A stretch of DNA of 64,000 nt from Botryllus schlosseri (GCA_051294905.1 CM119371.1:19284001-19348000), one strand, 5' to 3'; numbered from the stretch's first letter, positions 4,840 to 59,544 are shown. Program-made: numbers and translations. Notes: a model not told the origin generated them from the letters alone.

Positions 4840-4851
4840 AGGTACAGGATG

Positions 4852-5065
4852 GTATATTCATATTGAAATAAACCCGAATACTTTCGGCTGAAACTCGTCA
4901 GGGGTAATCGTCAGCAACTAGTAGAGAATTGGAAAGAACATTGTATATCAACAATCGTATCACAAAATATGACGTCATCAGCGTGAAATTTCGTGAATGA
5001 GAGAGCGTTCAATGTACTATTTTTAGGTGGTACACGAACTCCTTTTGTTGACAGAGTTTTGGTTG
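4852..5065 (-). mobile_element. Penelope-like element 3' end fragment
   Basis: Near-identical to the left arm of the 24.2-25.1 kb element; encodes ...QPKLCQQKEFVYHLKIVH* and carries the hammerhead motif. Confidence 0.8.
4872..4915 (-). ncRNA. Minimal type I hammerhead ribozyme
   Basis: Reverse complement reads GCTGACGATT ACCC CTGACGA GTTTCAGCC GAA AGTATT C GGGT: full CUGANGA/GAAA/UH core and stem I ACCC:GGGU. Confidence 0.75.
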
Positions 5066-5105
5066 GTGCTGGTGTTGGTGGATTTGGAATTTATATGTCC
5101 TAATC

Positions 5106-7630: not shown

Positions 7631-9123
7631 AATATGTATCATTATATACCCAGATACAAGCCCTATAATTCTCATCAAAAATTATTGCGGGTTTGTTAGT
7701 CTGGAAGGTGATATAGAAAAATATATATGTCGATCCAAATTCACTTTTCACCCCCTAAAATGTAAATCATTTGTCAAAGACCACATAACTCACGCAGGTC
7801 GAAGTTTTTTGCATGTGAGGAAAGATTCTGCCAACATGCTATTGTAGACGAAGTCGCGTACAGTAATCATGGGATTATCACAGAGAATTTTTCAAGTATA
7901 TTTTCGGTCCCAGTGTCTCATCGGTACCACATCTCCCCTACATGCACGCAGAGAGATAGTGACCGAGACCCTAGCGTCAACACTCAACATAGATGTGATG
8001 AACCGGGAAGGATTGTTCAAAGAGTATAAAAAAATTTCTGGCATCATTTACGTCTCCTGATTTATTAAAAGAGAAGTGTTGATAAGGGTGATTGTGTGAG
8101 CAACTAAGTCATTGCATATAGCAGGGGCGGGCAACATACGGCCCACGGGCCTTATCCGGCCCGCGAACAGTTTTTCGTCTTACATGATAATGTGGCCCGC
8201 GGCCCCAGATTGCCGATATTCTCCACTACTTGCTTACTACACCAAATTTTAGTGACTGTATGTTATTATATACGTGTATGCGCAGCGTTGCGAGAGTGGA
8301 GGTCAGGCATAAGTTAGTCGAAGCGGGAAGACTTGCATTATCGGCATTTACGATGCACTCAACCCTATTGTCGTCTGTGGTAATCATGATTTTACTACAA
8401 TGGTCATTTACACCAGGCTGATATTTCTATTTTTGATTCCGTAACCGCCGACTTGTAGCACGGCACGCTTCTACGCTTTTGTAAGGCACCGCTTATTCCA
8501 GGAGTCGCCAACTCAAGACGGCTCGCAGTCCACTTTTCAAATTTCGTAGAGGACGCGGGCCGCATGAATTCAATATCGAGATTAATTAGGCCACACAGTT
8601 GAACAACGACGCTATCTCGTCACCTACTCAACCCTAACGAATTGATAACTTGGTAAATTAGGGTTACCGGGCTTATCGAACGCCTTGAAATCTTAAATTA
8701 GGGATTGCACCGTGTGTTGATTGATCAGAGAGAAGCAGACATGGCGACATGGCGGGCGCCTGTATGACAATGTTATTCTCAAATCCACATTGTCGTCGCC
8801 ATTATCGGCGAGAAATGGCATTGAAGTGACATTGCTGCCGTTAAAATACATTCATCAAGTACGATTTATTCCTTGTCTATGTGGATAAATGGGCGAATAA
8901 TGCATCGAATCAGCAATCCGACCCGGCAAGTAGGCCTACCTAATTTTCCTATATCTCGCCCGCCGACTGGAGAAGTTGCCTGCCCCTGTTTTAGGGGGTG
9001 CAAAGTGAATTTGGATCGACATATACATTTTTCTATATCACCTTCCAGACTAACAAACCCGCAATAATTTTTGATGAGAATTATAGGGCTTGTATCTGGG
9101 TAGGCTATATAATGATACATATT
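7631..9123. mobile_element. Element with ~130-bp inverted repeats, containing a hAT-like MITE (8122-8988)
   Basis: 7631-7760 is the reverse complement of 8989-9123; internal CAGGGGCGGGCAAC / GTTGCCTGCCCCTG termini, TSD not matched. Confidence 0.65.
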
Positions 9124-11375: not shown

Positions 11376-13103
11376 TCAAATTTTGACACCAACATGAATA
11401 CCAAGATGCCTATTCAATTTGGATTTGAAAATAAATCCTTTTCCACAAACATCACATTCATGCCTTTTGATACCAACATGGATAGCCATGTGCCTTTCAA
11501 GGTTCTCCTTTCCAGGTAATTCTTTACCACATACATCACATTTATGAATTTCGATACCCGCGTGCAAACGAAGATGTCTATTTAAGTTCTCTTTCAAAGT
11601 ATATCTTTTCAGACAAAAACCGCATTCATGGCTTCTGACACTAGCATGCACAGCCATGTGTTTCTTGAGGCAACCTTTTCGTAGAAATTCTTTTCCACAA
11701 ACATCACATGTATGGGTTTTGACACCAGCATGAATATCCAAGTGATGATTGAGATTACCTATATGCTTGAAATCTTTCCCACAAACTTTGCATTCATACT
11801 TTTTGACGTTGAAATGCATCTTTAAATGGGACTTGAGGCCACTTCTTCGGACGAAGTCTTTTCCACACACATCACATCTATAGCTGTTACCACTAGCATG
11901 CACAGCCATATGTTCCCTTACGCCCATATTTTGTCTGAATTCCATCCCACAAACATCGCATTTATATTTTTTGATGTCCGAGTGCAGCGCCATGTGCGAC
12001 TTGAGGTAATCCTTTGTCAATAATTCTTTTCCACAAACGTCACATTTGCAGCCACCCGCATGCACCGTCATATGTGAATGGAGGCCACCTCGTTGCGCGA
12101 ATTCTTTTCCACAAACATCACATATATAATTCTTGACAGCATTATGTATATCCTTGTGAGCGATTAGATTTCTTTTATCAGTAAACTTTCTCCCGCAAAT
12201 CTCACAGCTATGCTCCTTGACACCGACATGCATAGCCATGTGACTTCTCAAGTTTTTTTTTAGCACAAATTCTTTTCCACAAACATCACATTTGCAGGTT
12301 ATAAAAGTAGAATGCACTGACATATGTAGACGGAGGCCCGCCCTTTGAGCAAATTCTTCCCCACAAACATCACATTTATAATTCTTGACATCCCAATGAA
12401 TATTCATGTGATCTTTTAGCTTGCTCCTGTTAGTAAATCCTTTCCCACAAACATCACAACTATGATTCGTGACACCAACATGTATAGCCATGTGACTCGT
12501 CAACTTTCCTTTTCGCCCAAATTTATACCCACAAACTTCACACATATACCTTTTAACGCCAGCACGCATATCTGTATGTAGCTCGAATCCATGGTTTTGT
12601 GCGAGGTCTGTTCCAAAAACATGACATTTATCATCCTCATCCTTGACACAAGAATGCATCTCTGTGTGTAAATTGAGGTCACCCTTCCGAGTACATTCTT
12701 TTCCACGACGATCACAGCTTGCCACTCCACCATGTATACTTTTATGAATATTGAGGATGCACTTTCCAATGCCTTCATCACGACGAATGTCGCATTGTTG
12801 ATATTTTGCTGCACCATCTTCGTAAGGATCTTTCAAATTTGTGTTAGAATCAATTGAGAGTGACTCGCCGTACATCTCGATACAGACTGTTTGGTAACAG
12901 AGGAGGTCACAAACGAGTTCAATCCAATGATGAAGTGCAAATCGTTTATTACGGACGTGTTGATGAATAGGCTGATAATATCTGGTGTTAAAAAGCCTGG
13001 CATAAAAATCATCGTCAGATTCAAGCAACCCAATATTTTCAACCGAGAAATTACGTACTGTAGATATGGATTTGACGTAAACAAAATTGAAGCCCACATT
13101 CAT
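11376..13103 (-). CDS. Tandem C2H2 zinc-finger protein (14 intact fingers plus degenerate N-terminal fingers)
   Basis: 575-aa ORF with repeated CxxC-x12-HxxxH units. The start may be the ATG at 12875 (MYGESLSIDS), which aligns with the paralog's MDGESFSIDS. Confidence 0.92.
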   Translation of the reverse strand: MNVGFNFVYVKSISTVRNFSVENIGLLESDDDFYARLFNTRYYQPIHQHVRNKRFALHHWIELVCDLLCYQTVCIEMYGESLSIDSNTNLKDPYEDGAAKYQQCDIRRDEGIGKCILNIHKSIHGGVASCDRRGKECTRKGDLNLHTEMHSCVKDEDDKCHVFGTDLAQNHGFELHTDMRAGVKRYMCEVCGYKFGRKGKLTSHMAIHVGVTNHSCDVCGKGFTNRSKLKDHMNIHWDVKNYKCDVCGEEFAQRAGLRLHMSVHSTFITCKCDVCGKEFVLKKNLRSHMAMHVGVKEHSCEICGRKFTDKRNLIAHKDIHNAVKNYICDVCGKEFAQRGGLHSHMTVHAGGCKCDVCGKELLTKDYLKSHMALHSDIKKYKCDVCGMEFRQNMGVREHMAVHASGNSYRCDVCGKDFVRRSGLKSHLKMHFNVKKYECKVCGKDFKHIGNLNHHLDIHAGVKTHTCDVCGKEFLRKGCLKKHMAVHASVRSHECGFCLKRYTLKENLNRHLRLHAGIEIHKCDVCGKELPGKENLERHMAIHVGIKRHECDVCGKGFIFKSKLNRHLGIHVGVKI

Positions 13104-14589
13104 TACTTATAGAAACCTGTGCTAGTATTTGCATAATTAGAATACTGTTGTTGCCTATCGTTAACCACACAATAATGCCGGCTCCTAACACTGTTAACTC
13201 ACACACGTTCGTGAAAACTATATATATGAGTTAATCCTTTTTCGAACAATTTAATTTCTTGATTGGGTCAACATGTCACCACCTCATGTATCTTATGTTA
13301 TATAATATGGGTTGCTTTATGTTGAGTACATGCATGTTAAATTCAAGAGCCTAGTGCAGTATCCTGCTATTTCACCGACCTAAAATCAATGTGAATCCCT
13401 GCGCATTGGTCTATACCAGACTTAGGCGAACTACACCCCGCAGGCCGCATGTGCCCCGTTATAACATTTTTGCAGTCCGCGAAATCCCCAATTAACTTAT
13501 AAAAGACAGTAATAAATGCTTAGCAAGAATTAAATTACTGCAGCAATTTGAACAAGATTTCTCCTAATATATTTCATCATGATATTGAAAGGTTTTTGTT
13601 GTTAAACATTCCAGAAAGTCAAAACCGTAAACGACTTTAATCGGATCATATGCATGGGATTTTGTATTGGCGACAGCTTCGCGCCCCCTTCAGATGCTCT
13701 CATGCCTACCAAGGGGGGTGTGCCAACCAGTTTGAGCGCCACTGATCTAATGGAAATTGTATCAATCCCGTACCATATGCACGACAAAATTACATTCGCA
13801 GTACATGAATAGTTATGTTTTAGTATACGATGTCATTCTGTTTTGCTATGTAACTGTTGAACAATCATGGCATAACGGTCGCTAATTATTAAACAATTAG
13901 CGGCATTGTCTCCAAGTCTAAACGAGAGTAGAGAGCAGCCAAAGCCTGCGACGCGATAGTTCAGGCCAGCGACACGACATCTTGCACACGAGGCCTATTA
14001 CAGATGCGACTGCTCAAGCCAACGGTTATATCGTGCGCACCAGGCCTGCTGGAGATGTGACTGATTACGCCAGCGATTATATCTTGAGCACATGGCGTGT
14101 TGTTGATGCGATAGTCCGTTCGGGCCTATCATTGACGCGAAGAATTAGCGGGGACTGCCACGCGCGTGTAGAGCCGTCAATGACCTAATTTAGCTCGTGT
14201 ACAGACTACGGTGGCTCAGCAGGAGATCACATCAGACTTGACAACTAGATAATTCAATAATGCAATATCGAGACAAGATAGGCCACACAGTTGAGCAATC
14301 CCGTTTTTACAACTTTACGTATGTACAATGCGATGGTCACTAACATGGGCGATGGGCATGGTTATTACAAAAGAAGTAATATTTTATTATAGAAGTACAA
14401 CAACAAATAGCATGATCATGAACAGGCCGTGTGTAGGTGACCACTGGTATAGTGCAAAACAAGTCAAGCTTGGTGTACATACGTAAACCATTCTAATGCT
14501 CATCAGAAAGCATTGTGATTTAATATGAACCTAACTTGATTTTGCTGTATTTCTATCTCATGCACAATTTCATTCAATTTCGACGTTGT

Positions 14590-24000: not shown

Positions 24001-24241
24001 TTCTTCTCTGTGTGGTATTATCATTTGTGTATTATTATTATTATCCTCATCATTATTGGGTTGGAGATTTATAAGAATAATCTCATTCTAAAAGCTCCAA
24101 TCTCCACGTCCAGTACTGGCAAGTCGGTTTCTGCTGTCGGTATCTGAAACTTTGGTACGGCACTGAAACCATTATTTGAAGAGCTTCTTGGAGGTACAGA
24201 ACTTCAATATACAATTAAATAGTATATTCATATTGAAATGA

Positions 24242-24285
24242 ACCCGAATATTTTCGGCTGACACTCGTCAGGGGTAATCGTCAGC
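24242..24285 (-). ncRNA. Minimal type I hammerhead ribozyme
   Basis: Reverse complement reads GCTGACGATT ACCC CTGACGA GTGTCAGCC GAA AATATT C GGGT. Confidence 0.8.
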
Positions 24286-25018
24286 AACTAGTAGAGAATT
24301 GGAAAGAACATTGTATATCAACAATCGTATCACAAAATATGACGTCACCAGCATGAAATTTCGAATGAGAGAGCGTTCAATGTACTATTTTTAGGTGATA
24401 CACGAACTCCTTTTGTTGACAGAGTTTTGGTTGATGTATTTTGATAAAAGTTGATTCCAAGGCACACAAATGGAATTGTGAACGGCCTCGACCTACGATT
24501 CGAAATCGGTCGTCTCGATAATTATTCGCACAAATCGGATTATCCAACAGATGTTTGCCGATGGCAGAATTAATGGCCTTTGATCGATCAGCATCAATCT
24601 TAAGTGGATGAGTTAAGGGTGAGCTTTTCACATCGCGTGATCAGAACACGTGCGTCACGCGATGTGAAAAGCTCACCCTTAACTCATCCACTTAAGATTG
24701 ATGCTGATCGATCAAAGGCCATTAATTCTGCCATCGGCAAACATCTGTTGGATAATCCGATTTGTGCGAATAATTGTCGAGACGACCGATTTCGAATCGT
24801 AGGTCGAGGCCGTTCACAATTCCATTTGTGTGCCTTGGAATCAACTTTTATCAAAATACATCAACCAAAACTCTGTCAACAAAAGGAGTTCGTGTATCAC
24901 CTAAAAATAGTACATTGAACGCTCTCTCATTCGAAATTTCATGCTGGTGACCAGTGACGTCATATTTTGTGATACGATTGTTGATATATACAATGTTCTT
25001 TCCAATTCTCTACTAGTT

Positions 25019-25062
25019 GCTGACGATTACCCCTGATGAGTGTCAGCCGAAAATATTCGGGT
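25019..25062 (+). ncRNA. Minimal type I hammerhead ribozyme
   Basis: GCTGACGATT ACCC CTGATGA GTGTCAGCC GAA AATATT C GGGT: canonical core and palindromic stem III AAUAUU; predicted cleavage after C25058. Confidence 0.8.
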
Positions 25063-25140
25063 TCATTTCAATATGAATATACTATTTAATTGAAACCATT
25101 ATGTTCTATCAAATATAAGTGGGGAAGGGCAACGTCGAAC

Positions 25141-30830: not shown

Positions 30831-31899
30831 TTTTGCTGGTATTTCCCCACATTCTGTATTGCGAGTGACAGTGAATGCTGTGCATTCAATTTGCTGCTTC
30901 CAAGATATTCAAGCATTGATAGTGTGATTTCAATGTGAACATCGATCATGAAGAATAGCACTGAAGTACTTTCAATGTCACAGTTGCCGCTACATATTTT
31001 TCTAACAGAGGCATTTTTTGCAGCAGTTACAGAACCATTTCTTTTGTTTCGGGGAAGTGTTTAGTCGAGCACATAGGAGATGATCCCGGTTGAGACAGGA
31101 GTAACAGCCACTTGAATTGCTTTTAGTAAGTTGAAGGTCGCATATTCCACAGTACCAGTCCTTCTGACTATATTTACTTTGGAATGCCATCATCACAGCA
31201 GCCATTACATCATATGCGAAATATTTCTCGATGTGGAGTATATTCACAGTCTCATTAAGGCAGCTGTTGGGGATGAAACAAGTGTCAGACGTGAAAGACT
31301 TACTGCCCAATTTCTTTCTGTACATTTCTTCATAGTGTCGGATGGTAATACGATCCATGACAGCATCACTGTAAATGAGGCAGAAATAAAATTTGCTGTC
31401 GTTCTGCTTGAAAGTAACTTACATCTGTCTGTGTCTTCAGGATGTCTTTTTTAAATGCAACTGGAGCGTCACATTTCTTCTTCGTTCGTTACTTTCGCTC
31501 TCTCGATCGTTCTGGTGACGCACACCGCTTAATCGCAAACCCAAGCCTTTTGGGCATCCTCTTTTCTTTAGTTTTGCTCGCAAAAGTGTCAGACTCTTCA
31601 CTATGAGATTCTGCCCATCCTCTGCCGTACCAAACCTGATATGATCTTGGCTCTCTTTACGGAAAGTGCTGCAATGAAATGTGATGCGTTACCCTGTGTT
31701 TCAAGTGTAATGCACGGCATGTGTGGCAGTGCCGCTGCTCGTAGTCCAGTAGAAAGCAAAAAGGGTGTAGGCTAGTAGACTTTCTTATCCACAACCATCA
31801 TACCATGTTCCCCATGAACATGTTCAAATTTATAGGCTATATATTTGATTTTTGGTTAGGTTATCAATTTAGGATTGCGCCTGTGACGTGTCGCAAGGT

Positions 31900-32510
31900 G
31901 AGGTGATGGGGTTAAGATTGTGGTTTCGGCACGCGTGGGGTTAGGATCGGGGTGCCGTAAGATGAGGTGGTGGGTTTGGGGTTGCACATGTGGGGTGTCA
32001 TAAGATAAGGTGGTGGGGTTGGACTGTAGGGTTAGGATTGGGGTGTCGCAAGATGAGGTGGTGGGGTTGCACTGTGGGGTTAGGATTGGGGTTTTGGCAC
32101 GCGTGGGGTTAGGATCGGGGTGCCGTAAGATGAGGTGTTGGGTTCTGGGTTGCACGTGTGGGATTAGGATTGGGGTGCCGTAAGATAAGGTGGTGGGGTT
32201 GGACTGTAGGGTTAGGATCAGGGGTTCTGGCGCATGTGGGGTTAGGATTGGGGTGTCTAAGATGAGGTGGTGGGGTTGCACTGTGGGGTTACGATTGGGG
32301 TTTCGGCACGTGTGGGGTTAGGATTGGGGTGCCCTAAGATGAGGTGCGGAGGTGGTGGGGTTAGGGTTGCTCTGTGTGATTAGGATTGGTTGCGTGTGTG
32401 AGGTTAGAATTAGGGTGTCGTAAGTTGAGGTGGTGGGGTTGGGGTTGCACGTGTGGTGTTAGGATTGAGGTGTTGGGGTCATAGGAATAGGGTTGGAGTT
32501 TAGGCTGAGG
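31900..32510 (+). repeat. G-rich minisatellite
   Basis: Mixed ~48-bp (GGGGTTAGGATTGGGGTGCCGTAAGATGAGGTGGTGGGGTTGCACTGT) and ~29-bp units with extreme G/C strand skew. Confidence 0.9.
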
Positions 32511-33204
32511 GTAATCCAACCCTCATTTCACGATACCCGACTACAAAATGCTCATGGGGAACACTGCTTCTTGATGTTCAAGTTGTTATGAACCCGGTGA
32601 AAATACCGTATTGTATGTAACTAACGCTTACTTGCCGTTGGTTAGGTCGAAGACCCGTAGATGAGCTCTGAAATCTGCGACCGCCGCGGATGCAGTGAAA
32701 AGATATCTGGCCAGTGCCCACTGCCCATATACCGTAGTTGAGCGCATTATTCAAATTTCGCCGATTGATTCGCTTTCTTACTGCATCAAGCACACGCGAA
32801 TCTCTCTTGTAGAGCTGGACGTAATTTTCTTTCTGGTATTTCACCAAAGCACTTGCCAAGTCTTCGTAAGAGGCAAAATCTCGAGGAATCCATGCTGCAT
32901 TTACGGCTCACAGTTCCGGAAATCTACGTACCCATTCTGCAGTTACGGCGTGCTTACGCCGGACGAATAGCCTGAGGAACTTAATTCGTCCGGTACCGGA
33001 CGAGTAGACACTTCCTAATCTAATAGCAACGTGTATCTTTGTTTCTTAGACGGCTCAGTGCTAACATTGCGGATGCGCTCATCTTTACGAACCATGTTGT
33101 TTGATATAAATCGAACGAATATAGTTTACGAGTTTATATTCTCACGCATGTCTATAGTTGGGCAGTGTGTCACATCAATTCCTTCAACTTGTCGAGGATT
33201 CGTA

Positions 33205-36200
33205 AGTAGTATAGTAGATCGGTCGTGAGCGGCCATTGGTTCTTACGGGCCCGCTCGTGAGGTGCCGCGAAACTCGTGTTGGTGATGGCACCCTTTAGAC
33301 CCCCTTCCGCTGGTGAGATGCCATGTGTTCTTATGGGATCTCTGGTGATGGTACCCTTTCAGGTATAGGCTGCGTCGGTGATGTGCCGTGAAAACTCGTG
33401 TTGGTGATGGTACCCTTTCAGACCCCCTATCGCTCGTGATGTGCCATTGTTTCTTACGGGATCTCTGGTGATGTGCCATTGGTTCTTATGGGATCTCTGG
33501 TGATGTGCCATTGTTTCTTATGGAATCTCTGGTGACGGCACCCTTTCAGGTATAGGCTGTAGCGATGATGTGCCCACGGATTCTTGTCTCGTAGTGAACT
33601 AATGTTGTTGGTATAGGTTGCGGTCATGAGGTGATGTTGATTACGAAGTATATTGATCACGTGATTGATCCTTAGTTATTGTGTATACCCCAAATTATTA
33701 TATATGAGCGATTCGAGTTATTCCTAACGTTTACGATGATTGCGACTTGAATACATCGTTATTCTTATGGACGCGGCGGTGATTCGTACTTTCGGGTATA
33801 GACTGCGTCGGTATGTCGTACTTTCAGCGAAAAAGGTGCGAAATAGTTTGCTAAATCTAGGAATCAGTCGCATGGTAATGTTTTGGTAATTAGTTTGCCA
33901 CAGAACCGGCGTAGACGGCGATTCGAATATCAACAATAACCACAATAACCACGCTCACAAACTAACACTTCAAAAAGGTGTGAAATAGGTTACAAATCCC
34001 GCGATCGCTCACAAGATAATACCTAAGACATAACCATCGCTCGCGATTTGCTGTTACATACATTCCAATCACTCACGAGGTACTATTTTGGTAATTATAG
34101 TTTGTCGCAGAACTGGATTTCACTGGTAAGACTTAATATGTAACGAATAACCGAACCGTTGCAGACGGTGATTCGAATACCGACAAATTCTCACTTATTT
34201 TCTGATCCAACCCTAATCCTTTGCGTTGTTGGCGCTTATTCAACAAGGTGTGAAATAATTGTAAAATCCTACGTCGCTGACACGATAATGCATCATGCAT
34301 AGCGATCTAGTTAAAGTACGGTGTCGGAATCCATTCGCGAGATGTTCTATAGGTAAATTGAGATAATCCGAAACGAAATATTTTGACTTTGGCGTAGTGT
34401 GAATTGAAATAGGATTGACAAACATGACTACCAACTTTCCCACAGTCCCATTTCGATATTATACGCACATTGATTTGAAACAAGTAATGAAACATTGCAA
34501 CTCTTCGCGATCCGGCTTTCCGTTTGTCAAAGAGACATTTTAACATCTTACCATACTCAAAAGAATTATTCACAACATTAACCGGTGTTACAAATCTAGT
34601 TTTCACTTACTTGATTATATCACTACAACTCGCAAACTCGAATTGATTCATCTGGTTGTATTCATATGACCGATAATTTTATCCAACTGTAAAGGTCATT
34701 ATACTATTCTGTAAGACAGAGTATTTACTAATCGGTGCATATACGACTTGACATAAACATATTATATTTTGAGTATACGAGATTTGAATGTCTGAACAAT
34801 AACTGAGAAATAATTTATCGCAATTAAATCCGCATATTATAGTGTAAAATATATTGGAATGCCAGCAACTCTTTACGATCATAGTTACTACCGCATTAAC
34901 TAATTTACCCGGCCAACTCGTCATAATCATTCCTGAAATCAACACAAACATGGTCACTGACTTGAGTTAACCACAAGACAGCATCAAGTTTTAAATCCGC
35001 TTGTAGCTCTCGGATTATTCGCATGCATCGATAGACAATATTGTTGAACTCATGAGTATTCTATTTCAATGAAGTTTCGTTTTATACCGACTGCGAAAGT
35101 TAATATCGAATTGTAAGACTTGAAAAAAAAATCACATATTTGTTTGACGATAACACAGACATGACAAAAAACATAACCGAGATTTTATAAACTATAGTCA
35201 TATTACTCTACACATCTATCAATATCAGAATGCAAGTCGTCAAAATTTTTGTTTAAAGTAACATTTCACTTTTGGAATCGGATTCGTTATAGCCATACAA
35301 ATTACATTAAACCCAACACCAAAACAAAAGGACTTTTTACTTCATTAAAATCAAATCATTCGTCTTCGACTTGTGCTTTATTAGATTGCGCGCGACAGTT
35401 CGTTACGAATGAGCTGAAACCAAAGTTGAGAAATCTTTGTGTCCACAGATATAGAGCATGCATATAGCTAACACAATCACGAATCGGCGTTTCTGAGTAT
35501 TTCACGGAGGTAATAAACTTGTTAGTGTCACCTATCTAAAAGTATGCATGCGTTCGATTTCCATACCGCCTGTTGCGACGTTTAGGATTCGCTTACAATG
35601 ACCAAAAGTGAGGATTTAACATTAATGTCGTTACTGTTGGTATCCGCAACAGAGAATTGAAACATTACACAGTGTGAAAATATCTCTTTGATATCAAAGC
35701 ACTATCCCAAGTACACGATTAATACTCAACTTCGTTCACACTTTCTATAGAACGTGCTAAATGTAAAGTATCGCGAGGACTCTTTGATCATTACAAAAGT
35801 AAATTGGGATATGTTTGCTAGACGCATCCAATTCAACTAGAAATGTCTACTGCACAACACTCGTAATATCAAGGAAGTACTTGCTACACTGTAATTCACT
35901 AAACGTGTTTTGCATTGTTATTGATTTGTAGTATTGATTGAAATTGTTTTTGAACCCTCAAATAATAATAATTCCCGACATGAAACCAAGCCGCTGAAAG
36001 TCGTTGCCACCACAAAGAAACAATTTGCACGATGTTTATCAAATGTGTCCTATAGTTCGGTGTACTAGAATTATTTGTGTAACACATACACCGACAAAGA
36101 AATCGGAAATTTTTCCGTTGTCATTCGCGCGACTAAGAACATCATCGCTACAGCCTATACCTGAAAGGGTGCTGTCACCAGAGATCCCATAAGAAACAAT

Positions 36201-36506
36201 GGCACATCACCAGAGATCCCATAAGAACCAATGGCACATCACCAGAGATCCCGTAAGAAACAATGGCACATCACGAGCGATAGGGGGTCTGAAAGGGTAC
36301 CATCACCAACACGAGTTTTCACGGCACATCACCGACGCAACCTATACCTGAAAGGGTACCATCACCAGAGATCCCATAAGAACACATGGCACCTCACCAG
36401 CGGAAGGGGGGTCTAAAGGGTGCCATCACCAACACGAGTTTCGCGGCACCTCACCAGCGGGCCCGTAAGAACCAATGGCCGCTCACGACCGATCTACTAT
36501 ACTACT
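33205..36506. mobile_element. Non-autonomous Polinton/Maverick-like element
   Basis: ~367-bp TIRs (33205-33571, 36139-36506) starting AGTAGTATAGTAG and containing internal tandem repeats; perfect 6-bp TSD TTCGTA (33199-33204, 36507-36512). Confidence 0.78.
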
Positions 36507-38026
36507 TTCGTATTTGATCCTCTATATTGGCCGATAAAATCAGACTGTAGCATGTAACTATACAATTACTCGCGTATTTTATTAGCAGTTCTACGTTTGC
36601 ATGAGTGCTGCAACATCGTCTTGCATGTATATTTTACTTTATATTCGTTATTTGATTTCAGATAAATGGCCAATCCATCTGTCCTTAATCCAGTTAGCAA
36701 AATGTAATGATTTCTCATCGTCACTCATACTTCGAAAATTCAATTTGACTTGAATCGTGACTTTACTCGTGACTTGACTTGACTCGACTTGACTCGAGTC
36801 ACCTCCAAAAAACGAGTGACTTGACTTGACTCGAGTCACCTTTGAAAATTGATTGACTTGACTCGAGTCAAAATGTGCAATAACTCGAGATTACTCGTGA
36901 CTTGAAGGTAGTGACTTGATCCCAACACTGGTCGGTACTCACTTTAACCAGACCTCTTGTATGATTTAAATCGAATTTTAAGTTTATAAGTTTATTTTAC
37001 TCGCCAATCATCGGTGCAGACTTACATTGTATCTCACGGATGTGTATAGGCGGGCTCGTGTCAATTCGTTTTTGAAGATTCGTATTCTATTCTCTATTTT
37101 GGCTGATAATTCTAGACTGAATCGATACAGTTACATATACGCAGTTTAGCAGTCCTATGTATGCATGAGCGATACGACGCCTTTTCCGCGTTTACTTACC
37201 TCTATATTCACCCCACGATTCAAAATTAATGGCGACATTGAAACAGCTATCCAAATGCAATGCCTTAATTATGCCTCGTACTTTTAAAAATCAACTTGAC
37301 TTGAATTGTGACTTGACTCGTGACTTGACTTGACTTGACTTGACTCGAATTGACTCGAGTCATCTCCAAAAATCTAGTGACTTGACCTGACCCAAGTCAC
37401 TTTCAAGAATAGATTGACTTGACTTGACTCGAGTCAAAATGTGCACTGACTCGAGATGACTCGTGACTCGAAGGTACTGACTCGATCCCAACACTGATAC
37501 CCACAATGACCTGGGTCAATGTCAGGAATGGGTCTCTTACCTTCCGAGAACCTTATCGTAATATGAAATGGCTGGTCTGCGAAAAAAGGTGGTGGCCGGG
37601 GTGAATATTGCAGATCACCACCACCAATGCTCCACTAGACCACTGCTTTCTTGTAGGCCTGAGGGAAAGAAAAAAATTGAGGTTGCAAAGTTCGACATCA
37701 CATCCAAAGCACAAATTTGGAATGCGATCGACAATCGGTATGGTAGTAGGGAAAAGATTTGTCGTCTTTTGTTCGTCTTTTAGTAATAGATTACCTATCA
37801 GAAAAATAGACGCATGGAATTGTATTCAAAATAAAATTTAGGCAGGATTCGAATCGGATATTTGTAATATAGACACAAATTTGGAAATGCGATTTTTGGT
37901 AATTCCTATTTACATGTGATTACTTATAGAATCCGAGCTACTTTAAAATTTGGACTGGGATCTGAAGCCCGAACAATAGAACTGGGATTTCGACAAAATA
38001 ATTCACGTGCTAGCTATAGCTTGTAC

Positions 38027-42771: not shown

Positions 42772-44154
42772 TCAATTTTTGACATCAACATGAATACCAA
42801 GATGTCTATTCAATTTAGATTTCCAAATAAATCGTTTTCCACAAACATCGCATTTATGACTTTTGATACCAACATGCATAGCCATGTGTATTCTGAGGTT
42901 ATCCCTTCCTGTGAATTCTTTCCCACATACATCACATTTATGGATTTCGATACCAGCATGCAAACGAAGATGCCTATTCAAGTTTGATTTCAAAGTATAT
43001 CGTCTCCCACAAACACCGCATTCATGGTTTTTGACAATAGCATGCACAGCCATGTGTATCTTCAGGTCACCTTTTCGCATAAATTCTTTTCCACAAACAC
43101 CACATGTGTGGTTTTTTACACCAGCATGAATAGCCATGTGTTTGGTGAGGTTATCGTTATGCTTGAAATCTTTCCCACAAACATTGCACTTATAATTTTT
43201 GACGTTGAAATGCATCTTCATATGGGTATTGAGGTCACCTGTTCGGGCGAATTCTTTTCCACAAACATCACATTCATGACTTTTGCCACTAGCATGCACA
43301 GCCATATGACACCTTAGGCCCATATTTTGTCTGAATTCCATCCCACAAACATCGCATTTATAGTTTTTGATGTCAGCGTGCAGATCCATGTGTGACTTGA
43401 GGTAAACTTTTGCCGCGAATTCTTTTCCACAAACATCACATTTGCAGCTTTTACCACCGGCATGCACCGGCACATGTGAACGGAGGCCATCCAGTTGCAC
43501 GAATTCCTTCCCACAAACATCACATATATAATTTTTAACATCATTGTGAATATCCATGTGATTGTTTAGATTGCTGATATGAGCAAATGTTTTCCCGCAA
43601 ATGTCACATCCATGATTCTTGACATCGACATGCATAGTCATGTGATTCGTCAGGTTACTTTTTCGCACAAATTCTTTTCCACAAACATCACATTCATAGA
43701 TTCCAGCACTAGCATGCATAGCCATATGTAGCTTGAGGACTTGATTTTGCGTGAAATCTTTTCCACAAATACCACATTTATGATCCTTGACACCAGAATG
43801 CACGTCCATGTGTCTCTTGAGGTGACTCTTTCGAGCATATTCTTTTCCACAAACATCACATTTATGATTTTTGACCTCAAAATGCATATCCATGCGAGTC
43901 TTGAGGAGTCCATTCCGAGACAATTTTTTTCCACGAACATCACAGTTATAGCTTTTCACTTCGGCAGATTTAGCTTCATGAATATTGATGCTGCACTTTC
44001 TAATGCATTTATCACGGCGAATGTCGCATTGGTCATATTTTGCTTCATCATCTTTGCTCAGAACCTTCAACTTCGTGTTAGAATCAATTGAGAACGATTC
44101 CCCGTCCATCTCGATGCAGGTTGTTTGGAAACAGCGAAGCACAAACGAATTCAA
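42772..44154 (-). CDS. Tandem C2H2 zinc-finger protein (13 intact fingers), paralog of 11376-13103
   Basis: Open reading frame with repeated CxxC-x12-HxxxH units; first in-frame ATG at 44109 (MDGESFSIDS); flanks also homologous to the first paralog. Confidence 0.92.
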   Translation of the reverse strand: MNSFVLRCFQTTCIEMDGESFSIDSNTKLKVLSKDDEAKYDQCDIRRDKCIRKCSINIHEAKSAEVKSYNCDVRGKKLSRNGLLKTRMDMHFEVKNHKCDVCGKEYARKSHLKRHMDVHSGVKDHKCGICGKDFTQNQVLKLHMAMHASAGIYECDVCGKEFVRKSNLTNHMTMHVDVKNHGCDICGKTFAHISNLNNHMDIHNDVKNYICDVCGKEFVQLDGLRSHVPVHAGGKSCKCDVCGKEFAAKVYLKSHMDLHADIKNYKCDVCGMEFRQNMGLRCHMAVHASGKSHECDVCGKEFARTGDLNTHMKMHFNVKNYKCNVCGKDFKHNDNLTKHMAIHAGVKNHTCGVCGKEFMRKGDLKIHMAVHAIVKNHECGVCGRRYTLKSNLNRHLRLHAGIEIHKCDVCGKEFTGRDNLRIHMAMHVGIKSHKCDVCGKRFIWKSKLNRHLGIHVDVKN

Positions 44155-46012
44155 TAATGAAGTGAAAACGTTCGATTACAGATGTGTTGATGAATAGGCT
44201 AATAATATTTGGAGTTATAGCAGACTGGAATGAAAAAATCATCGTTAGATATCTGCAACCCAACATTCTTAACACAGTAATGACGCAAAATAAATATGTA
44301 TTTGACGTCAACAAACTTGAAGCCTACATACATTACACAAAAAAAAAATTTATAAGTAGAATACTATTGCTGTCTACAGAAGAATAACGGCTTCTAATAT
44401 CGTTATCTCAGTCTCATATATGATCCATATGTTGGTGAAAACGATATCAATGAGCTAATCCTTCTTTAACAATCTAGTGTTTAGAAAAATTCATACTCAC
44501 AAATTTAATATTGTGGTTGGGTCAACATGTCACAACCTCACATGTACCTTTATGTTATATCAAATGGGTTGCTTTTGCTGAGTAGATGCATGTTGAATTT
44601 AAGAGCATAGTTCAGTATCCCGCTATTTTACCTACCGAAATTCAATATGAGATCCCTGAGCATGGGTCTATACCAGTGGTTCTTACCCAATGTTCCATGG
44701 GACACTGGGGATTTCGTGGGCGTGAGGACAGTCCAATAATTATAGGATATTGATTTTTGAGAATCCGAATCCGTCCGACAGCTTGCGTGTCTGTGAAACT
44801 ATTCGTCCGAATCCAAAGAATCTGAACCAACTATAATACTATATCCGAAAATCTCGTCCAAAAATCCGTACAACTGAGCTGAGATACAGTTCTGCACTGG
44901 AATATCACTATAATTGTTTGGGATCGGGCATGTTATTTGTTATTCTTTATTTGATGACGTTTTTAGGGGAATCAGTTTCCAGTTCAATTGTCCTTTATTT
45001 CTATTTCGCTTTTCTAATCATTCTAATTGTCTGATTTCAATCCTAATTGTCAGGGTTGTAACCAAGTCACGAGGCCCCGAGTAACAAGTCAATCTCACTC
45101 TTGTAGTTTTGACTCGAGTCAAGTCGACTCATTTTCAATTCACCACCGAGTCAAGTCCGAGTCCAAGTCATCGAGCAGAGGGCCGAGTCATGGTATTATG
45201 ACTCGAGTCCAAGTCATTGTATTGACTGCTCAGTTTCTAGTTAAAGTCTTGTTAAACCCCCTGTATTACCTGTTTAGTGATATCGAATGGTTCGCATTTA
45301 CAATATACTAATTTTCCCCATTTTTAGCAGTTTCTGGTCGCATTTTCAAGTACCAGTATCAACAGACGAAATCCCAATATTGTGATTACTTTACTATTCC
45401 TTGAAATTATAATGAAATGCCGGTCTTGGTCGTCTGTGTCTCGAGTCCTAAGACTTGGTTCGAGGCATGCGCAATAGGGTTGTCCAAAATTTGGAAAATC
45501 TTGAAAATACTCCGTGATTGTGTCTCATTCTATAGATTATTCATAAAAAACAACAATGAGCCTGAAAGAAGCTCATAGGAAAGCCGATAAGATTTCGGGC
45601 AAAGCGTTTGAAAGTAGCTGCCCAATAATGGGCGTGCCACCGACCATAGAACGGCGAGAAGACTAGTAACCAAATAACCACGGCTCTTGATTGACTAATC
45701 GGCTATGCTTCAATGATCACGACAGCAGCAGCTGGCTGATTAGGTGTTCAGCGAGTCTGCTACCGGCGGGGATTCTTAAAGCGCATAGGTAGTTGGTTGG
45801 CAGATGATGATTTAAGAATAATTCGGGACATGTTTAGGTACGAAATACATGATGAACAAACAACAACTGCTTCACAAAATCTTTTACAGCATGACTGCTT
45901 TATTGTGAAGGAAACTGCTGTAGCCTACATGTCGTGTTTTCATCGAGGGAAAGCAAAGGCGCTTATGCAAGTGGTGAACGAATACCTCGTTTCAGAAGCG
46001 ATCCATCATCAG

Positions 46013-56345: not shown

Positions 56346-57471
56346 GTCAACTGTCTTCGGCAGGTGCAATAATACCTCGAGTAGGATTTTTTGAGATCCA
56401 AATTTTAACATAACAGGCGAAAACATGATCCGACTTTAATCAGGATTCCATTTATCGATCAGCAGTGGATTGGTATTGGAAAAACCATATATCTGTCCAT
56501 AGCCAAGTGCCGAGTTCACTGGCAACCGCCTTTATAAGAGATAGATCTCTATGAAATTGATTTTCGAACGCTCTGGTTCAATTGACATCTGATTGACAGG
56601 TACGAACCCAACTTTTGATAAAAAATTGACTGGGGCTACGAAGTTGAAGTGAATAAAGTTGATCATATCGCTACTCGCTAGGTCAGGGCCATCAGGAGCA
56701 ATATAAATATATACCTACAACAGTCTACCGCTTAAGATAAGATACATACATATCTTACAAGCACCTATATATATATTTCTTTTTGTGTTATGTTACTTTC
56801 GGGAATACTCAATACTGCACTTCGAAATAAAAGCACCAAAGATTAGGAGTTTTAATTGAAGTACTGCGATCCTATAACAATGGAAAATTTCCTAAAATTG
56901 TTTTCATCGCTTTCTGCATCCCATTTGAAATTCACTACCACGATAGTTATACAGTTCATAAAGTGATTTATTCCCACTTTGCTTTCAAATGTCGAATTAT
57001 ATGGTATATTACTATCATTACACTTTGGGCCACAGTGCACATACGATATGTATAGATTTAGTGTAAAAAGTATGAGTTCCTTATACAGCCATGCTTTTTT
57101 CATGGGCGTCCGTCTGCAATACTTTCCACATTCTGACATTCTCATAATAATGCGGTTAATCTAACGCCGTTGCCGCACTTTTCGGGTCTTTTTCGTAAAT
57201 GTTGGGCTATCCTATTCATCTATCACCCAAGTAAATCCCGTTTTACTTTCAAATGACGAATTCTATTGCTTCAATAGCACTATATCGGTACATATTTGAT
57301 TAGAAGAATTAGGCCTACCGCCGCTACCGGTATATTTTATTGACATGTAATACCTTACCCTGGTAAGTCCTACATTACTTTCAAATGACGAATTCTATTG
57401 TTGTCAACTTGTCATAGCGCTGCAGTTACAGTGTACAGATTCTATCAATATTGATTTAAAGGAATGCTGAG

Positions 57472-59544
57472 ATGTTAGCCACAAGGTTCTTGAAAGATGC
57501 ACTAAACTCCAAGTACAACCGGCAATATTTGAACTTGCGAACATTCAGATGGAAGATATCAACTCAACATGGGAATAAGCCGCTTATGCTGCAAAGAAGA
57601 GAGCTGGGAATATTAAGAAATGGCAAAATACCGAAGTCGAACTATAAGAATGTACGATATCAAATTCCCGGTCCAACGAACGTAGTCGGAAAACTGGACG
57701 GTTTAGAAACCACGCACGTCGGCGCTAAGAAGATAACCAAGTTTATGATGTCATACATCTGGCCGAAGGACAAGCCGCAAGTTAAAAGAACGGTAGTGTT
57801 CTCCTTATCCTTACTTGTAGGCGCGAAATTATTGAACGTACAAGTGCCTTTTCTCCTCAAATACGCCGTAGATCAAATATCTCTGATGTCTACTACTTCC
57901 CCAGAGCTGGCGGCTTTTACGACTGTGTATTTTCTGATAGTGGGCTACGGGGCCGCCCGTGTAGGCGCCAGTCTTTGTAATGAGCTGCGGGACGCTGTGT
58001 TCGCAAAGGTGGCGCAGAGGTCTATCCGAGAAATCGCCAGGGAACTGTTCGGACATTTGCACTCTTTAGACATGAGATTTCATATGGGCAGACAGACTGG
58101 TGCGTTGTCAAAAGCAATTGACCGCGGCACCAGAGGCATCAACTTTGTTTTCCGGGCTCTTGTGTTTAACATTGTCCCTACAATATTCGAAGTTACCTTA
58201 GTGTCCTCGATATTATGGTACAAATGTGGTGGTCAATTCGCAGTCGTGACTCTAGCCACTCTTACGACTTACATAGCATGGACGCTGTCGATAACGGCTT
58301 GGCGCACGAAATTCCGTCAAACCATGAACCGCGCTGATAACGAAATGGGAAATTTAGCCGTGGACTCGTTGATCAATTACGAAACCGTCAAGTATTTCAA
58401 CAACGAAGACTTTGAGACCAAACGCTACGATAAAGTCCTCGCGAGGTACGAAGAAGCGAATTTGAAGACAAACACGTCTCTCGCGCTGCTAAATTTCGGC
58501 CAGCAGTTCATTTTCGGATGTGGCTTGACAGCGATTATGTTACTAGCTGCGCAAGGCATCCAAACCGGAACCCTAACAGTCGGAGATTTAGTCATGGTTA
58601 ACGGATTGTTATTCCAGCTTTCTGTCCCGTTGAATTTCCTCGGATCAGTCTACCGAGATATAAGACAAGCTCTCATCGATATGGGAACTATGTTTAATTT
58701 GATGGAACGTAAAAGAGAAGTGACGAACGCGATCGACGCTGCACCGTTACTCGTTAAAGACGACATCGCCGCTATTAAATTCGACAACGTAACTTTCGGA
58801 TATGAGAAAGACAAAACTATATTAAACGGATTATCGTTCGAGGTACCTACTGGCAAAAAAGTAGCGATTATCGGCGGAAGCGGAAGCGGTAAAACCACAA
58901 TCGCTAGACTCCTGTACCGATTTTACGATCCGTGGCACGGAAGCATACACATCAACGATCAAAACATCAGACTCGTGACTGTGGAAACTCTGCGGAAAGC
59001 GATAGGTATTGTACCTCAAGAAACAGTGTTATTTCACGATTCGATATACCATAATATCTCGTACGGAGACTTAAACGCTGGCAAAGAGAATATCTACGAT
59101 GCTGCACGTGTAGCCGATATTCACGACTCAATCATATCGATGCCGAAAGGCTACGAAACTATGGTAGGAGAGAGAGGTCTGAAATTATCAGGAGGCGAAA
59201 AGCAGAGAGTCGCGATCGCGAGGGCTGTGCTCAAACAGCCGTGTATTGTGTTATACGACGAAGCCACATCGTCGCTAGACTCTATCACGGAGCAGAACAT
59301 TTTGAAAGCGCTACGTAGATTCACGATTAACAAAACCTCGATATTTATCGCGCACCGCCTGTCGACTGTGATGGATTGCGACGAGATTTTGGTGTTGAAT
59401 CAAGGCCGGGTGGTGCAGAAAGGCACTCATCAACAGTTGATGGCCGACCCGACTTCGTTGTACACCAAACTGTGGGAAAGTCAGAACACTGTGTCGTCTG
59501 ACGAGGGTGACAAAGACAAATACGGCGATAATTTAATTCAGTAG
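57472..59544 (+). CDS. ABCB7: Mitochondrial ABC half-transporter ABCB7/ATM1 (Fe-S cluster precursor export)
   Basis: 690-aa uninterrupted ORF: basic N-terminal presequence, [32 protein letters not shown], Walker A GGSGSGKT, signature LSGGEKQR, Walker [18 protein letters not shown]. Confidence 0.95.

Follow-up and report, generated by a model that had tools for sequence, protein, structure and literature searches.

The 64-kb stretch of Botryllus schlosseri DNA analysed here (hereafter the window) has a GC content of about 40%, is animal-like in character and contains many small TIR elements. The element that interests us is 3302 bp long and occupies positions 33205-36506. Two paralogous C2H2 zinc-finger ORFs are found on the minus strand (11376-13106, 576 aa, and 42772-44175, 467 aa); they lie 31.4 kb apart and are about 81% alike at the DNA level over 1.27 kb. 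On the plus strand, an uninterrupted frame of 694 aa (57460-59544) carries ABC_membrane and ABC_tran domains and presumably resembles a mitochondrial ABCB7/ATM1-type half-transporter; this intron-free frame may be a retrocopy or an intron-poor gene. An 881-bp fold-back element (24212-25092) is made up of inner arms of 297 bp (24344-24640 and 24655-24951) that are 100% complementary around a 14-bp spacer and of outer 107-bp arms that are 99% complementary. It has a partial copy at 4849-5068, and no obvious TSD was found at the boundaries tried. Another element, 1.5 kb long (7631-9123), has arms of about 114-135 bp with a complementarity of 95-98%. A G-rich minisatellite of GGGGTTAGG-like words, which we take to resemble a degenerate telomeric repeat, stretches from 31880 to 32480, 700 bp to the left of the 3.3-kb element. 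The observed/expected CpG ratio is 0.99 for the whole window and 1.47 for the interior of that element, so no CpG depletion is evident.

The 3.3-kb element is bounded by long TIRs. The left arm (33205-33571, plus strand) is 367 bp long, starts with (AGT)2 and consists of units of about 32 bp, most of which begin with (G/C)GTGA; the right arm (36139-36506, minus strand) is 368 bp long and terminates with (ACT)2. Both arms share the terminus AGTAGTATAGTAGATCGG, and the ends of the element are AGTAGT/ACTACT. The arms are identical at 362 of 368 aligned columns, the remainder being five substitutions and one gap, each contains a period-32 array of 3.3 copies, and together they make up 22% of the element. 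The first-pass annotation had described near-identical TIRs of about 367 bp that start with AGTAGT and contain tandem units of about 30 bp, a description that these alignments bear out. The TIR does not form a special single-stranded-DNA hairpin fold (z = 0.0). No other copy of the TIR or of the interior was found in the window. When its AGTAGT sites were paired with its ACTACT sites (16 x 12) and its AGAGAG sites with its CTCTCT sites (42 x 15), the ends of the element were the only pair flanked by a 6-bp duplication.

Between the two arms, the left and right halves are not alike. The left TIR is followed by a subterminal zone of degenerate repeats (33572-34310, plus strand), in which internal repeats are found at 33830-34307 and the segment 33762-33816 is 78% like the TIR segment 33328-33384. 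When 13 bins of 200 bp were compared with 100 random controls, TIR-like signal in the interior was restricted to 33772-33971 (score 47 versus a control maximum of 29), where it runs in the sense of the left TIR. The rest of the interior (34311-36138) is AT-rich non-coding DNA with neither a protein match nor TIR-like sequence, and the GC content of the interior is 0.29-0.41 in 200-bp bins. The inner end of the right arm lies 9 bp into a unit of about 32 bp, and the left side carries the same unit onward. TIR-like and degenerate repeats thus extend inward on the left side only, and the element is lopsided. The boundary at 36138/36139 resembles a deletion junction, which could be private to this locus or could have given rise to a short family.

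The element is flanked by two copies of TTCGTA (33199-33204 and 36507-36512), both flush with its ends. The flanking match is exact at 6 bp and at none of the other lengths from 1 to 11; a 6-mer would match by chance with a probability of 3e-4. The surrounding DNA is a host repeat, which has an uninterrupted paralogue 430 bp downstream of the element (36938-37262, plus strand) that serves as an empty-site control and contains TTCGTA once (37079-37084). The left part of the interrupted repeat (33078-33204, plus strand) aligns to 36938-37084 with a score of 50 (maximum of 36 in 200 shuffles) and the right part (36507-36709, plus strand) to 37079-37262 with a score of 97 (maximum of 43 in 200 shuffles). 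With the flanks aligned separately, the left alignment finishes and the right one starts on the same six bases, 37079-37084. Since the uninterrupted paralogue has TTCGTA once and the occupied site has it twice, the duplication is a true TSD; the exact 6-bp TSD proposed in the first-pass annotation is thereby backed by a paralogous empty site. Contigs from two of the DNA sequencing runs described below (X4 and X12) run from the left-flank repeat to exactly 36507 and skip the element (joints from 33070 to 36507 and from 33123 to 36507, the intervening letters not being known). They probably derive from further copies of the host repeat that are uninterrupted, and not necessarily from an empty allele of the locus. 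A 31-kb segmental duplication was also considered as a source of an empty site and was rejected, as the flanks lie outside its shared blocks. The host repeat and the TGACT-rich repeat that follows it make up a tandem pair of units, each of about 550 bp (33078-36930 and 36938-37496); the two units are identical at 315 of 441 columns on their right part, and the element sits inside the first one. The TGACT repeat has the deepest coverage of the examined stretch, in DNA and RNA runs alike.

The interior had been initially read as unrecognisable cargo or decayed genes. All six frames were compared with the Pfam and PHROG families, stops being written as X, and no family was found below E 0.1; four matches at E 0.11-4.8 were dismissed as noise. 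The reported lack of any pPolB, integrase, ATPase or capsid motif is therefore upheld. Beyond profiles, homologues were searched for with one entire frame and with parts of three others. A phmmer search with interior frame +2 against 1.84 billion representatives had no match at E 0.001, and word-seeded searches with 35234-35893 (plus strand), 34307-35166 (minus strand) and 34310-34966 (minus strand), which constitute weak evidence, retained 0 of 263, 0 of 87 and 0 of 96 candidates at E <= 1. The longest stop-free stretch has 99 aa; for 500 random sequences of matched composition, the mean is 98 aa. The stop-interrupted, coding-like stretches suggested on the plus strand, with 35540-35830 as the example, do not hold: the period-3 power over 35522-35821 is 1.34, in a range of 0.25-2.14 for 16 windows of the interior, against 1.73-4.19 for six windows of a real ORF. 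An X12 contig that covers 35495-35772, and with it most of the stretch in question, at a depth of 319 differs from the window copy at 14 places without any gap, 11 of them among the listed variable sites and three further. Since every frame has at least four stops off the 11 listed sites and the further differences are only three, the X12 contig is closed in all six frames as well. With no excess of ORFs, no codon periodicity and no protein match, the interior is non-coding DNA and not decayed cargo.

Other databases added nothing to this picture. No Rfam family reached its gathering threshold in the whole window, and distant blastn searches of phage records had no match. The TIR patterns were not found in viral contigs, metagenome contigs or prokaryote genomes, as one would expect of animal DNA; these negative results carry no information. 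None of the searches revealed homology with a known Polinton at the protein or the DNA level, and only the ends and the TSD link the element to that group.

Sequencing runs show that the element is not isolated in the species. Part of it is contained in 20 of the 24 listed runs (nine studies), 19 of them labelled organism A and one organism B; a single run of the 24 contains half of its words, and no RNA run is found among those listed as holding it. Four of the 24 runs were examined, namely the DNA runs X1, X4 and X12 and one RNA run. In each of the three DNA runs, 30 of 30 bins are covered. The lowest of the 17 interior bins is 16, 162 and 36 times as deep as the first flank bin in X1, X4 and X12, respectively, and the median interior bins reach 49, 514 and 129 times that bin, all of these values being summed depth and not copy number. 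The depth of 319 of the X12 contig mentioned above, which is unbranched and 278 bp long, is 24-52 times that of two flank contigs. At 24 of the 33 interior positions among the rows listed (40 of 677), at least 90% of the depth of X1 and X4 differs from the window copy, and so the depth at these positions stems from other copies. The TIR and all of the interior bins are thus multi-copy in the species, and the sequence is not unique. In the RNA run, of which about 6% was read, the depth over the element is 0-5 per strand, and 96% of the placed reads continue into unlike sequence, so that they do not bear on the expression of the window copy.

X12, which carries the label of organism B, contains the family too, and one of its flank contigs shows a single difference in 154 bp. 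The sample may come from the same species under another label, or from a very close relative.

The family to which the element belongs is structurally mixed. Other copies have length variants of the left subterminal zone, and some contigs diverge from the window copy at about 34310, 34535, 34799 and 35026. Contigs of X1 and X12 with a non-window letter at 33588 cross the junction between the left TIR and the interior with 46-49 letters on each side, which indicates that this junction is common to other copies. The right junction (36138/36139) was not seen in other copies among the rows listed, and none of the contigs listed spans the whole element. Relative to the lowest interior bin, the TIR depth, summed over left and right, amounts to 0.83, 1.39 and 1.65 in the three DNA runs (1.65 being X12); relative to the median interior bin it is 0.26-0.47, against the value of about 2 that a uniform 3.3-kb family predicts. 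Judging from the median bin, other structures may hold most of the interior-like DNA.

The six differences between the arms amount to about 0.8% change per TIR arm, which together with the intact TSD suggests that the insertion is fairly young. The number of arm differences expected from the interior is 6.9 at a rate of 0.93% (P = 0.47), which is a lower bound drawn from at least 24 near-fixed differences in 2567 bp. It is 15.9 at a rate of 2.2% (6 differences in 278 bp; P = 0.004), and it rises to 37 when all 14 differences in 278 bp are used, family polymorphisms included. Whether the TIRs appear younger than the interior thus hinges on the rate that is used. No TIR position is present among the rows listed (40 of 677). 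Contigs that fit both arms can go to the better one, and arm-specific differences are hidden as a result.

The presence of Polinton ends without core genes has precedents, since Repbase has non-autonomous Polinton entries of the 'Polinton-N' and 'Polinton-1N1' type. For this reason, the kind of element is not claimed to be new. As far as the accessible text of PMC8097293 goes, vertebrate Mavericks are recognised by 5'-(AGT)2//(ACT)2-3' or (AG)3//(CT)3 ends together with a 6-bp TSD. In the accessible text of bioRxiv 10.1101/2023.08.22.554363, which deals with a nematode set, typical Polintons have TIRs of 100-1500 bp and measure 13-25 kb. Compared with the autonomous Polintons/Mavericks of these two sources and of the available part of PMC3014272, the Botryllus element has the same end motif, a 6-bp TSD (at one locus) and a TIR length within the reported range. 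In contrast, it measures 3.3 kb instead of 13-25 kb, has no pPolB, integrase, ATPase, protease or capsid gene and does not contain an ORF of 100 aa. By its coding content and length, it is not an autonomous Polinton/Maverick; as a multi-copy sequence without coding capacity, it behaves like a non-autonomous Polinton derivative.

Among related systems, the PolB-less polintons of butterflies and flies, which the accessible text of the Pannagram study (bioRxiv 10.1101/2025.02.07.637071) describes as still mobile, are like the element in being Polinton-derived, TIR-bounded and presumably dependent on a helper. Nevertheless, these insect variants are at least 12 kb long and have kept other polinton genes as well as LINE/LTR cargo, whereas the element is gene-free. 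The Tlr elements of Tetrahymena were formerly called non-autonomous Polintons and, according to the parts of PMC5499653 and PMC4028283 at hand, are now regarded as a separate lineage of Polinton-like viruses with genes of their own, unlike the gene-less element. Non-autonomous Polinton copies are apparently absent from Anolis in the available part of PMC3014272, and no such family appears in the accessible portions of PMC6431247, PMC5718144, PMC5753468 and bioRxiv 10.1101/2024.01.15.575659. More generally, no description of a gene-less mini-Polinton family was found in the open literature, a scope that lies apart from Repbase and the 2006 founding paper. The element also shares with MITEs and other non-autonomous TIR elements the lack of genes, the multiple copies and the reduction to cis-acting ends; the difference is that the machinery suggested by its ends and TSD is that of a self-synthesising helper, as opposed to a cut-and-paste transposase.

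Several scenarios may explain these observations. What is directly observed is an integration with a 6-bp staggered-cut duplication, (AGT)2...(ACT)2 ends in long TIRs and no detectable gene. A Polinton-type origin, in whatever form, is very probable. Within that frame, we favor the interpretation of the element as a gene-less, non-autonomous Polinton/Maverick derivative that was inserted at about its present size into the host repeat by the integrase of a helper, to which we give a probability of roughly one half. In this reading, the element represents the Polinton equivalent of a MITE and belongs, as one of many copies, to a family of mixed structure. That the 3.3-kb form moved by itself is about an even matter: neither a second full-length copy, nor a second TSD, nor a helper was seen within the window and the contigs listed, which argues against its mobility. 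A bolder and more tentative proposal, to which we would give somewhat less than even odds, is that a fully gene-less 3.3-kb Polinton satellite was amplified to tens or hundreds of copies without any packaging constraint. Since 3.3 kb is about one fifth of the length of a helper, copying and integration would in that case take place inside the cell without a limit on genome length. Such a satellite may have descended, by collapse and renewed mobilisation, from a giant palindromic satellite, which would make a system of three levels: helper, palindromic satellite and mini-satellite.

The main rival is a collapse in place, because the right TIR ends in the middle of a unit and the subterminal repeats are found on the left only. 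It supposes that a much larger gene-less Polinton satellite was inserted and that its middle was then lost by an uneven deletion, so that one arm retains about 2.9 kb and the other 368 bp. In that case, the chance position of the breakpoint would have set the length of the TIRs, and the element need not have been mobile at 3.3 kb at any time. The 9-bp stub of the unit that ends the right TIR and is continued on the left side, the inward TIR-like sequence present on the left only (33772-33971, 47 versus 29), the left junction that is common to other copies when no right one was seen among the rows listed, and a ratio of TIR to interior depth that stays below 2 by every measure are all consistent with such a relic. 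The lopsidedness of the element fits a collapse after insertion equally well. Yet the founding deletion of a short family predicts the same lopsidedness, and the TIR sum in X12 does reach 1.65 times the lowest interior bin. On balance, this explanation seems rather unlikely, although it deserves more weight than those that follow.

Another possibility is that an autonomous Polinton with 367-bp TIRs was inserted and that one internal deletion removed all of its genes and joined its non-coding subterminal regions. In its favor, 96% of the vertebrate Maverick loci are degraded in the accessible part of PMC8097293, and the departure of contigs from the window copy at the four positions given above makes an internal junction possible. 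Nevertheless, no gene fragment is left on either side in 2.57 kb, 17 of the 17 interior bins are deep and no private internal junction is evident among the rows listed. Moreover, a vertebrate genome usually contains only a small number of autonomous Mavericks (median of eight), according to the same portion of PMC8097293. Such a deletion is thus distinctly improbable. The window is also rich in MITE-like TIR elements, among which long TIRs with internal units are common, and no Polinton homology was found. These facts could suggest that the element belongs, as a non-autonomous form, to an ordinary cut-and-paste superfamily and that its ends are Polinton-like by chance. The obstacle to this suggestion is that an arbitrary end starts with AGTAGT with a probability of about 3e-4 and that the length of the TSD is likewise that of Polintons. 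The two candidate groups that were compared do not fit either: IS3EU/GingerRoot elements have a 6-bp TSD and TA..TA or TG..CA ends in the available text of PMC10045372, unlike the AG..CT ends of the element, and Ginger1/Ginger2 elements, with TGTNR ends and TSDs of 4-5 bp in that of PMC2836005, differ from it in both termini and TSD. A chance resemblance is accordingly very improbable. An assembly artefact or a chance inverted duplication is hardly credible, as the arms differ at six places, the TSD is exact and validated by the paralogue, and the sequence was found in three separate runs.

Protein priming and the pairing of TIRs into a panhandle belong to the general background on Polintons, and a mechanism for a trans-mobilised, gene-less derivative may be proposed from them. 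The form would probably have been born by a deletion that shortened its right end and removed all genes. A full-size helper would then provide a protein-primed polymerase that would start at the terminal AGTAGT and copy the element by strand displacement. The displaced strand could pair through its own TIRs, which would keep the two arms alike in every round. The retroviral-like integrase of the helper would finally insert the copy and produce the 6-bp TSD. The 32-bp units are probably binding sites for proteins of the helper or of the host.

The self-copying of Polintons has been deduced mainly from their gene content, and the significance of the Botryllus element depends on which history applies. 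Should this copy be no more than the relic of a deletion, it would count as a common fossil marked by a clean TSD. If the proposal of an amplified satellite is true, the 367-bp TIR and the subterminal repeats would delimit the smallest set of cis signals with which a Polinton can replicate and integrate. If, as we favor, a short gene-less family has been moved in trans, the ends alone would suffice for helper-driven copying and integration. Such a family would also be a naturally occurring minimal substrate, and through it one could ask whether these elements need a capsid to spread.
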